Shown here in pieces: positions 1 to 21,535 of a stretch of 27,140 bases of DNA. Numbering within the stretch: the first letter of the stretch is position 1; each line of letters starts with the position of its first letter. Location: positions 1-27,140 of the IMG/VR virus record IMGVR_UViG_3300020045_003074; one strand, written 5' to 3'. The notes under the pieces are model-generated. The model did no database searches, was not told the origin of the DNA, and saw only the letters and a program-made list of their open reading frames with translations. The translations under genes were made by a program, and so were the position numbers. Source of the stretch: a virus. Lineage: Duplodnaviria; Caudoviricetes.

Positions 1-20
1 ACTTGTGTTCTATTCTTCAA
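1..20 (-). CDS. Probable start of a further cassette ORF (TTG, MKNRTQ...), truncated by the window edge
   Basis: GGAG RBS followed by TTG just inside attC-1 on the minus strand, the same layout as the other cassettes. Only 6 codons are visible. Confidence 0.35.
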
Positions 21-43
21 TTTATCGCACTCCGGTTTGTTTC

Positions 44-122
44 AGCTAACAAGGCGTAGCAACATCACTACACTTCGTTTCGTTCGACACGCTTCGCGTG
101 CGGTTGTACATGGGCGTTATGA
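44..122 (+). repeat. attC site 1
   Basis: R'' AGCTAAC (44-50), spacer AAGGC, L'' GTA[G]CAAC pairing with L' GTTGTAC, R' GTTATGA (116-122). Internal hairpin CACGC-TTC-GCGTG. Confidence 0.85.
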
Positions 123-380
123 CTCAAGCTCGAACACATGAAAAACTAAATCGCCATTCTGCAACTGGAACGTTGAAATGTATTTGCCGAGGTTGCTGGG
201 CATAGGATTACCAGTCCCGTAAATAGCTATTTTTCTAGTGCATTTTGCGCTGCCTTCAATGCACATAAACCACAAGACAAGATCATCTTTTTGAATTTGA
301 CTTGTCAAAATCGTAGCGCCAGCGGGGATTTCAATATTTTGTCTATCTCTTATTTGCAGTTTTACTTTCCAAATAACCAT
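117..380 (-). CDS. Cassette ORF, 87 aa conserved phage hypothetical protein (DUF7352-like)
   Basis: Pattern IWK..L....Q.I.IP.GA.IL..Q.Q.....LW...R.I.IYGTG.P....YI.T.Q...G.LVFHVFE recalls a widespread small phage family. Stop TAA overlaps R' of attC-1. Confidence 0.8.
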   Translation of the reverse strand: MVIWKVKLQIRDRQNIEIPAGATILTSQIQKDDLVLWFMCIEGSAKCTRKIAIYGTGNPMPSNLGKYISTFQLQNGDLVFHVFELES

Positions 381-406
381 TTTTAAATCTCACTTCGTTG
401 GGTTAG

Positions 407-490
407 TCATAACCAGTCGCAGCAACGGACGGGTCAAGAATTTCGCACTTTTCTGGCTGTTAAAAGCCGCCGTTGTGCTCGGCGTTATGC
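407..490 (+). repeat. attC site 2
   Basis: R'' TCATAAC (407-413), spacer CAGTC, GCA[G]CAACGG[A]CGG pairing with CCGCCGTTGTGC (two extrahelical bases), spacer TCGGC, R' GTTATGC (484-490). Confidence 0.9.
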
Positions 491-676
491 GTATTGAGCG
501 CACGCTTCACAGCAGCGGTTATTTTCCATACCCTTGTAAGGCGGCGGAACAAACTGTTTTCCGCAATCAAAACATTCGCGGCTTTCGTGTAGTTCTTTTG
601 GGTCGCACACGCTGCAACCGCTACACCCTCTCGCCGCACATTGAAACGCAGTTCTTTTTTCGTGGTCATGCTGCAT
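485..676 (-). CDS. Cassette ORF, 63 aa Cys-rich putative zinc-binding protein
   Basis: AGGA RBS. CxxCxxC, CFDC and CEAC motifs. TAA overlaps R' of attC-2. Confidence 0.7.
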   Translation of the reverse strand: MQHDHEKRTAFQCAARGCSGCSVCDPKELHESRECFDCGKQFVPPPYKGMENNRCCEACAQYA

Positions 677-702
677 AATTCAGTTTCCTATCGTAGTTGT
701 TT

Positions 703-788
703 GCATGACAAGGCGTTCCAGCACGGATGCCGCAAGAATTCGCCTTGTAGTTGTTTTTGTTCTGGCACCGCTGAACTCGGCGTTATGA
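703..788 (+). repeat. attC site 3 (R'' degenerate)
   Basis: R'' GCATGAC (AAC changed to GAC), spacer AAGGC, GTTC[C]AG[CA]CGG[A]TGCC pairing with GGCACCGCTGAAC, spacer TCGGC, R' GTTATGA (782-788). Confidence 0.85.
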
Positions 789-974
789 CTATTCAGTTTC
801 AAAAGTTTCGCCACACGAATTGCAGCGGTAAATATCCAATCGAGTTTTATCTGGCTTGTGAAACACATTGCAACCACAATTACATCTATAAGATTTACCA
901 GCAAGATTCACCATGAAGCTTTCAAGCTTCCCATCTTCTGTTTTTACTGCATTTTTATATCTATCAAAATGCAT
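789..974 (-). CDS. Cassette ORF, 61 aa zinc-ribbon-like protein
   Basis: GGAG RBS. RCNCGCNVF...YRCNSCG zinc-ribbon pattern. The ORF fills the cassette. Confidence 0.75.
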   Translation of the reverse strand: MHFDRYKNAVKTEDGKLESFMVNLAGKSYRCNCGCNVFHKPDKTRLDIYRCNSCGETFETE

Positions 975-993
975 ATATCACTCCGTTAATTGG

Positions 994-1077
994 TCATAAC
1001 AAAAAGTTGCAGCCGATGGAATCACCAAAGGCTATTTAATTACCCTCATACAGCCACGCCTGAACTTGGCGTTAAAT
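994..1077 (+). repeat. attC site 4
   Basis: R'' TCATAAC (994-1000), spacer AAAAA, GTT[G]CAGCCG[A]TGG pairing with CCACGCCTGAAC (one mismatch), spacer TTGGC, R' GTTAAAT (1071-1077). Confidence 0.85.
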
Positions 1078-1080
1078 TGT

Positions 1081-1287
1081 TTAGCAGGTTACTTTTGGCA
1101 AAGGTAGATCAGGGTTTGCCAACCAAGGAGCTTTTTCGTATTGGCTTGGTTTTTCTTGGCTTTGAGTCTTTAACTCAAGCTCTTTAATTTTTGCGGTTAG
1201 CCGTTCTTTTGAGAATTCCACAAATGGAGTATTTGGCGCTGTTCTGAAACAAAGCACTCCGTTTACAATAGCTTCTTCGTAGTACAT
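1081..1287 (-). CDS. Cassette ORF, 68 aa phage hypothetical protein (MYYEEAIVNGVLCFRTAP...)
   Basis: GGAGAG RBS before ATG at 1287. The upstream TTG at 1308 lies inside the attC, so 1287 is the preferred start. Confidence 0.75.
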   Translation of the reverse strand: MYYEEAIVNGVLCFRTAPNTPFVEFSKERLTAKIKELELKTQSQEKPSQYEKAPWLANPDLPLPKVTC

Positions 1288-1299
1288 ATTATCTCTCCA

Positions 1300-1385
1300 A
1301 TTTAACAAGTCGCTGAAAGAGCGACGGAATTAGAATTTTACATTAACGTGGCCTTGGTGTGCCGCGCTTTAGCTAGGCGCTATCT
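1300..1385 (+). repeat. attC site 5 (array-terminal, R' degenerate)
   Basis: R'' ATTTAAC (1300-1306), spacer AAGTC, GCT[G]AA[AG]AGCG[A]CGG pairing with CCGCGCTTTAGC, spacer TAGGC, R' GCTATCT (GTT changed to GCT). Confidence 0.85.
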
Positions 1386-1550
1386 CTCCACCCCTTGCGC
1401 AATGGTTAAATTCTCTATTGCCAGGGCGATAACATCATCCATCGTTAATGGTTTTTTGTTTTTTTTTTCTCTCGCTTTGTTTATTTTGTGCTGCTGAATA
1501 TCTAAAAACGCCTTTGTGGTCGGGTGTAACCTTACTTGTGTAGATGCCAT
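1380..1550 (-). CDS. 56 aa putative ribbon-helix-helix (Arc/CopG-like) regulator, absent from the ORF track
   Basis: Manual translation: MASTQVRLHPTTKAFLDIQQHKINKAREKKNKKPLTMDDVIALAIENLTIAQGVER. GGAGG RBS. Beta strand plus two helices pattern. Occupies the cro-like position. Confidence 0.7.
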   Translation of the reverse strand: MASTQVRLHPTTKAFLDIQQHKINKAREKKNKKPLTMDDVIALAIENLTIAQGVER

Positions 1551-1577
1551 ATAGCCTCCGTTCGTTGATTTAAAGCA

Positions 1578-1606
1578 ATTGTATATGTAATCTTTTTGTA
1601 TGTAAA
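1578..1606 (-). promoter_or_regulatory. Leftward sigma70 promoter driving the RHH gene and cassette ORFs
   Basis: TTTACA-17 bp-TACAAT on the minus strand. Confidence 0.75.
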
Positions 1607-1610
1607 GGTG

Positions 1611-1638
1611 TTGACAGAAAAAAGATGTGTGTTATCTT
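1611..1638 (+). promoter_or_regulatory. Rightward sigma70 promoter for the recombination operon
   Basis: TTGACA-16 bp-TATCTT with a TGn extended -10. Confidence 0.7.
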
Positions 1639-1669
1639 TAAGCAACACAAACAAACAGGGGTAAACAAG

Positions 1670-1987
1670 ATGGAATGCGCAGTAAGATTGGCTGAGATTA
1701 ATAACGATACACAAACAGATTCGCAAGAGCAGGCAGCCTATAGCGATATAGATGTGCAGTATTCCTACATACTTAATCGCCTACTATCCGGCAAAAAAGT
1801 TTACACCTTCTCGGCCAGCTTTAGCTTAGCCGATATATTAGAAGGCCAGCATGTTGAGTTTGAAGACCTTGTAAATCAGGATCATGATTTTATGTATGAG
1901 TACAGAACGGGCGGCCTAGATGAAAGCCTGCGCACATTAATCGAAACGGAAGCGCATAGAATCGCGCAAAGCATTGTAGGGGAATGA
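1670..1987 (+). CDS. Acidic hypothetical phage protein (105 aa)
   Basis: AGGGG RBS before ATG 1670. The ORF-track start at 1625 lies within the promoter. Confidence 0.7.
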   Translation: MECAVRLAEINNDTQTDSQEQAAYSDIDVQYSYILNRLLSGKKVYTFSASFSLADILEGQHVEFEDLVNQDHDFMYEYRTGGLDESLRTLIETEAHRIAQSIVGE

Positions 1988-1988
1988 T

Positions 1989-2225
1989 ATGAACGACTTA
2001 TTTATAGATAACTTGGCAATCTTGGCGGCTTATGCGCTACCGATTCTTTCTGTGTTGTGCTTAGGCGCATTTATTGGCGATAAAGTAATGGATTATCAAG
2101 ATGCGGCCGTAAAGCGCTGTAAGTATGGATTGGTGCGTGTAGGTTCGGCATTAAAGCCTAGCGCAAAGAAATGTAAATTTAATGTAATTGTTCGCACAGC
2201 TTTGGCAAAGTTGCGTTTTAACTAA
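1989..2225 (+). CDS. Small hypothetical protein with an N-terminal hydrophobic helix
   Basis: AGGGG RBS, tight operon spacing, one hydrophobic segment. Confidence 0.65.
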   Translation: MNDLFIDNLAILAAYALPILSVLCLGAFIGDKVMDYQDAAVKRCKYGLVRVGSALKPSAKKCKFNVIVRTALAKLRFN

Positions 2226-2235
2226 GGGGTAATGT

Positions 2236-2985
2236 ATGAACGAAGTCACAATACAACAACAATCGGCTTTGCCAGTAGTGAGCAAAGAAACAGATATGAT
2301 GATGCAATTAATACAACAAATTGCGTTAAATCCTGATATTCCTGTTGAAAAGATGCAAGCTGTTATCAACATGAAAATGCAAGTTTTTGATAAGAATGCA
2401 GAAATCGAATACAACAAGGCAATGATACTTGCACAGCAGGAAATGCTGCCAGTTATTAAAACTGCTAAGAATACGCAAACAAGCAGCACTTACGCAAAAA
2501 TGGAAAACATAGCCAAGCAATGTAAGCCGATCTGGACTAAACACGGCTTTGCTTTACAGTTTGGCACCGCTGACTGCCCTATTGCAGAACACTACCGCGT
2601 TACCTGCGAAGTGTCTCATGCGGCTGGATTCAATAAGAAGTATCAGGCTGATTTGCCTGTTGACGATGAAGGCATTAAGGGACAAAAGAACAAAACAGGT
2701 TGCCACGGTTTTGGCAGCACAATGTCTTATGCTCAGCGCTATCTAACAATCATGATCTTCAATATCACTCTTGAAGGCGCTGATAATGATGGTAATAGAC
2801 CACCACAACATCCACAGCAGCTACCAGCCAGACAAAAAACGCCAATATCTGATTCAAAGTTTGCAGAAGTAATTTCAAGAATTAAATCAGGCGAGGTCAA
2901 TATTCTTCGGCTAACTATTAACCATGAATTAACAGCGCCACAAAAAACAATCCTTTTATCAGAATTCCCTGAGGCTCAAATATGA
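2236..2985 (+). CDS. erf: ERF-family single-strand annealing protein
   Basis: YAKMENI...KPI...HGF, HAAG and the GSTMSYAQRY.....FNI motif are typical of the Erf domain. Confidence 0.85.
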   Translation: MNEVTIQQQSALPVVSKETDMMMQLIQQIALNPDIPVEKMQAVINMKMQVFDKNAEIEYNKAMILAQQEMLPVIKTAKNTQTSSTYAKMENIAKQCKPIWTKHGFALQFGTADCPIAEHYRVTCEVSHAAGFNKKYQADLPVDDEGIKGQKNKTGCHGFGSTMSYAQRYLTIMIFNITLEGADNDGNRPPQHPQQLPARQKTPISDSKFAEVISRIKSGEVNILRLTINHELTAPQKTILLSEFPEAQI

Positions 2986-3635
2986 TCCGGTGCAGCTCGA
3001 TTGACAAAATAATGACTAATCCTCAGAAAAAGACTGAGGAGTTTTCAGAAACCGCTAAGGGCGCGATGATGGAAACCGTTAGAGAGATTTTATTCGGTGT
3101 GCGCAAAAACTTGGACGATGTGCAAGCAATTCAAAAGGGGCGCATGTGTGAGGATGCTGGAATCCAACTTTACAACGATGTTTTTTTGTATGACCTGAAA
3201 AAAGTCGAGAGTGACGGACGCCGAAACAATGGCATCATCACAGGAGAGCCTGATTTAGTCGCTGCGCACTCTAAAAAGGGCGTTGATATAAAGGTGGCTT
3301 GGTCATTGCTAACGTTCCCCTTGTGCGCTGAGGATGCCGACAAGAAGGGCTATGAGTGGCAGGCTAGGGGCTATATGTGCCTGTTTGACTTGCCTGAGTG
3401 GGAGATAGCCTACTGTGCAATAGATACGCCCGATGAGCTTTTAAAACCTTGGGATGATCGCACAATCCATACGATTGACAGCGCCATACCTGCGCACCAC
3501 CGAATCACAGTGGCGCGCTATACCCGCGATATGGACATAGAGAAAGCCATGCTAGACAAGTGCAAAAAAGCCAACATATGGATTGAAAACGCGGTTAAAC
3601 AGTTCGCCACTGAGCACGACCAATACATTAAATAA
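2982..3635 (+). CDS. Lambda-exonuclease/YqaJ-like PD-(D/E)XK exonuclease
   Basis: IRCSSI, KG..CE, ITGEPD, DIK and YEWQARGYM motifs. Coupled to erf by an ATGA overlap. Confidence 0.85.
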   Translation: MIRCSSIDKIMTNPQKKTEEFSETAKGAMMETVREILFGVRKNLDDVQAIQKGRMCEDAGIQLYNDVFLYDLKKVESDGRRNNGIITGEPDLVAAHSKKGVDIKVAWSLLTFPLCAEDADKKGYEWQARGYMCLFDLPEWEIAYCAIDTPDELLKPWDDRTIHTIDSAIPAHHRITVARYTRDMDIEKAMLDKCKKANIWIENAVKQFATEHDQYIK

Positions 3636-21187: not shown

Positions 21188-21535
21188 ATGAACAAACAAA
21201 CAAAATTTGCTATTTTTTCATTAGCTTTTTCAATACTTGCTTTCTTTGTTGCGGCAAATTCAAAAGCTGATTGCGATGAAATCTATTTCAAAGTGGGCAC
21301 AGGCTATAAGTTTGACGAACAAACAAAAATCAGGCTCGATAGAGATAATAGCCGTGTTTACGAAATTGCCAACAGCCCTTATAGCGCAAGATTTGAAACA
21401 GGTGTTGAATGCGGGAATCTTACCTATGGACTGAGCCACCATTCGCAGTGGTCAACTGGAGCGCCATTTAATAAGACTGGCGAATACTATAAAACAGAGA
21501 TTTTTATAGATTATAAATTTTCGTGGAGTATTTAA
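21188..21535 (+). CDS. Moron: exported beta-strand-rich protein, 115 aa
   Basis: Sec signal peptide ending ANSKA, amphipathic beta strands, aromatic C-terminus (IDYKFSWSI), AT-rich, opposite strand to the late operon. Confidence 0.78.
   Translation: MNKQTKFAIFSLAFSILAFFVAANSKADCDEIYFKVGTGYKFDEQTKIRLDRDNSRVYEIANSPYSARFETGVECGNLTYGLSHHSQWSTGAPFNKTGEYYKTEIFIDYKFSWSI

Follow-up and report, generated by a model that had tools for sequence, protein, structure and literature searches.

How are gene cassettes read and moved in a phage array in which every cassette gene runs against its attC site? Integrons are described as bacterial gene banks, the holdings of which include phage defence, in the available text of 10.1101/2024.07.02.601686, and phage clusters of attC sites have already been published as CALINs in the virulent phages TJE1, PH101, P12002L and ctTUS972 (Qi et al. 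2023, PMC9892861), five such sites being recombined by IntI1 according to the same text. The window, namely the whole stretch of DNA that was analysed, is an entire viral contig of 27,140 bases, the left edge of which cuts into such an array. The initial annotation had proposed that its cassette ORFs are antisense to attC, are wired to a phage promoter at the distal end of the array and represent a phage-specific, inverted class. The reading favoured by the present analysis, with a probability of about two in three, is that of an integrase-less phage array of antisense phage genes, which is likely shuffled in trans by an IntI of the Cellvibrio type and likely read leftward. The locus works like an integron yet fails as a complete one, owing to the missing intI and the reversed reading.

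Architecture of the array

The contig belongs to a P22-like tailed phage, with the terminase, portal, head, ejection and lysis genes all on the minus strand and an ERF/exonuclease/SSB operon on the plus strand from about 1640. No Rfam match was obtained in 1-3000. A 115-codon ORF (21188-21532, plus strand) without a PHROG match abuts the late genes. The features of the array and its flank are as follows.

1..50, minus strand: truncated fifth cassette body, ending in R'' of site 1; array cut by the contig end
44-122, plus strand: attC-1; crossover G 116; L box pairs 7/7 with bulge; fold probability 0.006
117-380, minus strand: cassette 1 ORF, 87 aa, DUF7352 (PF24043, E 8e-23; phrog_3848); TAA at 117-119
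407-490, plus strand: attC-2, of cassette 1; crossover G 484; L box 7/7; fold probability 0.58
485-676, minus strand: cassette 2 ORF, Cys-rich, 63 aa; two homologues (92% and 76%); TAA at 485-487
703-788, plus strand: attC-3; crossover G 782; L box 7/7; fold probability 4e-6
789-974, minus strand: cassette 3 ORF, 61 aa, phrog_5768; homologue of Felix O1 ORF210
994-1077, plus strand: attC-4; crossover G 1071; L box 6/7; fold probability 0.53 for the bottom and 0.002 for the top strand
1081-1287, minus strand: cassette 4 ORF, 68 aa; GGAG ribosome site; 59 homologues
1300-1385, plus strand: attC-5, terminal; crossover G 1379; L box 7/7; fold probability 1e-6
1380-1550, minus strand: small regulator gene, putatively ribbon-helix-helix-like; fixed, not a cassette
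1606-1578, minus strand: predicted sigma-70 promoter TTTACA-17-TACAAT, leftward, 10/12 match; faces the regulator gene and the array
1611-1638, plus strand: predicted divergent promoter of the ERF/exonuclease/SSB operon, 10/12 with TG

It was confirmed that the plus strand is the top strand of all five attC sites and that the four cassette ORFs (4/4) and the fixed regulator gene lie on the minus strand; the attC polarity, the antisense ORFs and the complementary cassette ends are all seen directly. Sites 1, 2 and 4 display the complete attC architecture of R'' (AAC), 5-nt spacer, L'' with an extrahelical base, L', 5-6-nt spacer and R' (GTT), and sites 3 and 5 have decayed by one triplet change each, R'' being GAC instead of AAC in attC-3 and R' being GCT for GTT in attC-5, which overlaps the stop of the regulator gene. 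The geometry of the sites agrees with that of the aadA7 control as given in the supplement of PMC9892861. Misassignment of the top strand was considered and rejected, since the L boxes, with the bulge at the fourth base of the AAC-side arm, pair at 7, 7, 7, 6 and 7 of 7 positions when the plus strand is taken as top, as against at most 5 of 7 on the minus strand. Fold probability was higher for the bottom than for the top strand in four of the five window sites, the bottom strand was energetically more stable in two of five, and the energy and skew criteria were mixed and weak.

In the four cassettes, end complementarity extends over 9, 6 of 7, 8 and 9 nt. Across the 27 kb, our caller recovered these four cassettes alone, and shuffling bases 1-1700 100 times produced no call; by the same caller, the five sites, which lie within 1.35 kb on the plus strand with no neighbouring intI, constitute a CALIN (at least two attC within 4 kb on one strand). 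Of the traits by which cassettes are recognized, complementary ends were found in the window and varied array positions in the viral set described below. The canonical layout, in which the ORF lies on the top strand upstream of its own attC, is absent, 4/4 window ORFs being antisense, as are 190 of the 197 viral cassettes that could be classified.

Homologues from outside the contig support the minus frame of all four cassettes. ORF1 has matches in 24 phage records; its scan of the viral contigs returned no relative, and DUF7352 was found in one of 64 genomes of the genus, in that case without attC. Cassette 2 also holds a plus-strand ORF of equal length, so that its polarity rests on the two homologues. 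The 92% homologue extends 17 residues further at its N terminus than ORF2, and the changed R'' of site 3 forms the ATG of an 8-codon mini-ORF (677-706, minus strand) ending just before ORF2. Homologues of ORF3 without attC occur in L001-L007 and L203, and nearly all homologues of ORF4 align from residue 1. Of 14 loci with ORF1 or ORF3 homologues, 13 carry the gene bare in an ordinary operon; in the fourteenth (L066, another phage), the ORF1 homologue is an antisense cassette, so a homologue of ORF1 does occur with attC, and the initial annotation withstood this one refuting check.

The stops lie at or next to R', as had been claimed. The TAA codons of ORF1 and ORF2 fall inside GTTA of R', the TAG of ORF3 and the TAA of ORF4 lie in frame 2 and 3 codons ahead of the R' TAA, respectively, and the TAG of the regulator gene falls inside G-CTA of site 5. 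The GCT that replaces GTT in the last attC was observed in three contigs (at 1379-1382 of the window and in the terminal sites of L196 and L019), and it may lock the promoter-proximal end of the array.

Polarity in viral and host arrays

A scan of viral contigs, for which three patterns for attC and one for attI were used, gave 86 loci on about 53 contigs. A cassette was called between two same-strand sites with complementary facing ends, and its polarity was assigned by the longer ORF, provided that this filled half the body. Among the 217 viral cassettes so obtained (in 83 of the 86 loci), 190 were antisense, 7 were sense and 20 were unclassified, the 7 sense cases looking like near ties. 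Counted per locus, 81 of the 86 were antisense by majority, none was sense, 1 was tied and 4 were unclassified, although these counts are not independent because the loci overlap. The viral counts describe one site family rather than all phages, because the search patterns derive from it. In the host arrays beside IntI in the Cellvibrio genus, the attC arms of which are the same as those of the five window sites, 27 cassettes were sense, 2 antisense and 15 unclassified (n = 44), and the difference in polarity between viral and host cassettes was pronounced (Fisher p 3e-26). The polarity is thus real and general within this attC site family. A leading- or lagging-strand reason for it, considered in the light of the accessible text of PMC5371416, may apply.

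The viral and host arrays were found to differ in other respects as well, the median site length being 72 nt in phages versus 118 nt in hosts and the median cassette body 258 versus 463 nt. PHROG hits were obtained for 16 of 60 phage cassette proteins drawn at random from 189, as against 1 of 27 host proteins (p 0.017), and include methyltransferases, a polynucleotide kinase, an HNH nuclease and a Lar-like protein. When 190 phage cassette proteins were compared with 27 host cassette proteins, no match emerged. Accordingly, the arrays resemble the sedentary chromosomal integrons of Cellvibrio in their attC arm families, related attI, single ORF per cassette, complementary cassette ends and G|TT crossover, and differ from them by the absence of intI, the antisense ORFs, the promoter at the attC end, the phage cargo and the shorter sites and bodies.

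In GTDB genomes scanned with the first pattern, 25 cassettes were sense, 10 antisense and 11 unclassified (n = 46; 17 of 27 loci). Such antisense calls (10 of 46), together with the near-palindromic nature of attC sites, might be taken to mean that the window holds a captured piece of a bacterial array that was inverted by chance, or that its top strand was misassigned. However, 7 of the 10 come from a prophage and from a 3-kb contig in a Cellvibrio bin, which has cassettes in common with viral arrays; the cargo is of the phage type; and the inversion of a whole array leaves the polarity of ORFs relative to attC unchanged, on which ground a chance flip of a host array was rejected. Taken as a whole, this explanation is hardly credible. 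Short contigs from Cellvibrionaceae bins (L190 in G115 and L051 in G002) carry antisense arrays whose cassettes recur in viral contigs.

With respect to the published phage clusters, TJE1 was scored as sense and PH101 and ctTUS972 as antisense; in P12002L, the pattern matches did not coincide with the published sites. The sites of PH101, which two earlier patterns had missed owing to gap length and a later one recovered, are antisense to every annotated gene there. The proposal of a phage-specific inverted class therefore stands in so far as antisense cassettes prevail in 81 of 86 viral loci, compared with 27 sense and 2 antisense among 44 host cassettes, and fails as a rule for all phages, TJE1 being sense. 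The window array shares with the CALIN phages of PMC9892861 the several attC sites, the absence of intI and a cargo of small genes and DNA methyltransferases. The text of that paper calls the layout of TJE1 and PH101 typical and is silent on antisense ORFs and on attI in virulent phages, and its figures may show the polarity of PH101. In the literature covered, from which subscription journals and preprint supplements were absent, no paper was found on inverted phage cassettes or on phage attI-attC arrays without intI. In TJE1 (L062), the sense cassettes extend across the origin, and their ORFs run into or begin within attC. A Saprospiraceae array (L046) contains several cassettes of about 660 bases without a long ORF and one antisense ORF, and a single 37-kb viral contig (L027 and L034) has array segments at both ends, which represent two arrays or a single one divided by linearisation.

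An inverted insertion through the top strand, as outlined in the available text of PMC5027507, likewise yields cassettes that Pc cannot express and could explain the AAC-side attC swaps described below; it flips the ORF and attC together, whereas here the ORF is flipped against the hairpin asymmetry in nearly every cassette.

Probable leftward reading and the attI-like site

The predicted promoter was located at 1606-1578 as the initial annotation had placed it, and both of its hexamers are kept in three sister arrays, although the promoter search alone performed at chance level (4 sites found versus 4.6 expected). The assignment of the adjoining gene to the ribbon-helix-helix family is plausible: its structural model has an extended N terminus followed by helices at 10-29 and 37-47, a pattern that fits, and by features RHH clusters come up only at 0.87, but no Pfam, sequence-search or fold match confirmed it. 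L074 and L079 carry the regulator gene at 96% identity. In a further relative (L071), the regulator gene and the -35 box are present but attC is lacking, and a search of 277 genomes of the family with the regulator-promoter DNA gave one match, through attC only.

Three sister phages carry the same regulator gene and divergent promoters, and an attI-like site was found at the left end of the array in 3/3. Because this site lies opposite the promoter, the claim that the promoter occupies the distal end of the array holds. On the minus strand of the complete sister genome, the regulator is followed in turn by the array, attI, antirepressor, replication initiator, NinB, NinG and terminase, and a terminator-like hairpin and a weak promoter follow immediately past attI. 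The genes thus face attI and the conserved promoter stands at the other end, the reverse of a complete integron, where Pc is at the attI end. First ORFs were antisense in 4/4 readable attI-anchored viral loci, with the stop at or near the crossover; the set had contained one of these loci beforehand, and a fifth locus was truncated.

The left ends of viral arrays have in common an isolated G|TT site that closes with CTG|TTA. This motif also stands ahead of the opening cassette, a sense one, in a Cellvibrio integron (L111; IntI TIGR02249, 382 bits), and the site upstream of this IntI aligns with the phage left ends. With an attI matrix built from 11 of 25 host loci, picked by motif, 19 of 32 viral left ends fell within the top 1.5% of 4198 background sites, a partly circular test because the 11 loci were chosen after the likeness had been seen.

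A single leftward transcript would run from the promoter through the regulator gene and the cassettes to attI. Since it would be read toward attI, each new gene would join the promoter-distal 3' end, with the newest cassette last, and such promoter-distal addition would be the mirror image of a bacterial integron. A different view accepts the polarity and the use of IntI and denies the single operon, with transcription stopping at attC-5 and the cassettes read from internal promoters or scarcely expressed. It draws on the GC hairpin followed by UUGUU in the mRNA strand of site 5, on terminator-like minus-strand hits inside the attC sites of the sister array and on the chance-level promoter count. 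However, neither a minus-strand terminator nor a further minus-strand promoter was scored in window 1-1600, ORF3 and ORF4 carry GGAG ribosome sites, and the ORF leaders, with a median of 21 nt counted from the edge of the cassette, leave too little room for promoters. The no-operon view is accordingly considered quite improbable, and leftward reading through the array is retained as likely.

Proposed recombination in trans, turnover and possible cassette origin

No integrase was detected among the 35 window ORFs scanned on this incomplete contig, and the tyrosine recombinase domain (PF00589) was absent from 3/3 related viral records searched, one of which is the complete sister genome; an intI beside the array, as in a complete integron, is thus missing from both the window ORFs and that genome. 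It could be argued that a recombinase encoded in the missing part of the phage genome moves the cassettes, since the contig, at 27 kb, is incomplete and begins mid-array. The lack of such an enzyme in the three related records, together with attI and attC arms that are those of the host integron, makes this very improbable. Of 61 Cellvibrio-genus genomes, 39 had an IntI above the cut-off, and the host of the window phage is inferred to be of the Cellvibrio type. In one Cellvibrionaceae genome (G001), a prophage beside folD with integrase, portal, terminase and baseplate genes carries an attI-like site and four antisense cassettes, the IntI of this genome being encoded on other contigs. This prophage (L205, G001:C152) is temperate and, with its baseplate genes, unlike the P22-like window, yet it has the same attI-like and antisense layout. 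No array was found on G001:C125.

According to the accessible parts of the respective papers, IntI cleaves R' on the bottom strand once this has folded (PMC5027507), the PH101 sites recombine as bottom strands with IntI1 (PMC9892861), and IntI can use 5'-GWT-3' sites in genomes (10.1101/2022.09.11.507474). In the proposed mechanism, the window phage would carry attI beyond the contig end, where the array is cut off; host IntI would excise cassettes by attC x attC recombination and insert the circles at the phage attI (attI x attC). Host cassettes would then land antisense in the phage, and phage cassettes would lie antisense to the host Pc. This opposite landing polarity would keep two cassette pools apart on one recombination machine, separating viral from host cassettes functionally. 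If phages carry only att sites and use the host integrase, they would possess an accessory-gene shuffler of their own on the same machine.

The turnover of the cassettes is consistent with such shuffling. The three sisters have no cassette in common with the window, blastn among 22 bodies of the window and the three sisters gave no hit (a set including one false call across attI, with L196 under-called), and identity between two sisters and the window (91-94%) begins at the last R' box. To judge from these alignments, turnover between sisters is complete and starts at G|TT of the last site. The array would thereby offer a site-specific source of phage mosaicism. In Logan contigs from four runs, attC sites were covered more deeply than bodies, and other attC types were joined to the regulator gene, which fits shuffling and may also stem from other phages.

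Bodies shared between viral arrays were also compared. In 12/12 shared-body pairs, of which three have members in common, the neighbours differed on both sides, and only 2 of 12 kept their own attC at 85% or more; the mean likeness of the right-hand site was 0.69, as against 0.54 for left or random pairs. The attC identity often stops sharply at AAC. Common bodies with different attC cores were observed in L017/L088, L013/L019, L030/L051 and L077/L185, with identity ending at AAC in the three that were viewed. The low retention counts against strict bottom-strand recombination, which does not predict it, and the loss at AAC, as read from these comparisons, suggests that top-strand crossovers or homologous exchange also take part.

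The same low retention feeds a further explanation, by which the integron-derived sites now serve mainly as repeats for homologous recombination of the phage, with IntI in a minor part. The ERF and exonuclease genes adjoin the array, unrelated ORFs have leaders in common, and the phage sites fold worse than host sites (median fold probability 0.013 versus 0.27). On the other hand, the breakpoints between sisters coincide with the R boxes instead of lying within the repeats, GTT is kept in 266 of 269 sites (although the caller itself favours GTT), and attI is single-copy and kept in 3/3 sisters. Homologous recombination as the main process is therefore judged unlikely, and movement by a host IntI is maintained as the preferred reading.

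The last site, which overlaps the resident stop (G|TTA opposite TAAC) and fits 5'-GWT-3', recalls the attG insertions in the available text of 10.1101/2022.09.11.507474, as does the relative L071, in which the gene stands without attC. The phage arrays differ from these in being organised, with attI at one end, rather than scattered single insertions.

The formation of new cassettes is listed as an open question in the accessible text of PMC8618304. Of the 161 antisense ORFs examined, 133 share their reading frame with the R' TAA, and for 93 this TAA is the stop itself. Where C follows a stop codon, the opposite strand presents a G|TTA target, which, speculatively, hints at how such cassettes originate. 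On this basis, phages might act as cassette factories, in which host IntI excises between a resident attC and the G|TTA opposite the TAA of a phage gene, so that ordinary phage genes become new antisense cassettes, and crossovers at both R boxes then swap the attC cores between genes; the idea is tentative and on balance doubtful. If true, it would afford a direct handle on cassette birth and a second, viral pool of cassettes served by the integron machinery that the host itself directs against phages. Since ordinary phage genes are seen in bare form as well as in cassettes, and the in-frame fraction is 133 of 161, this specific origin can be tested. At the left edge of the window, bases 28-120 are 95-96% identical to a leader plus attC in L079 and L088, and the sequence beyond them appears to differ, so that leaders may be modular too.
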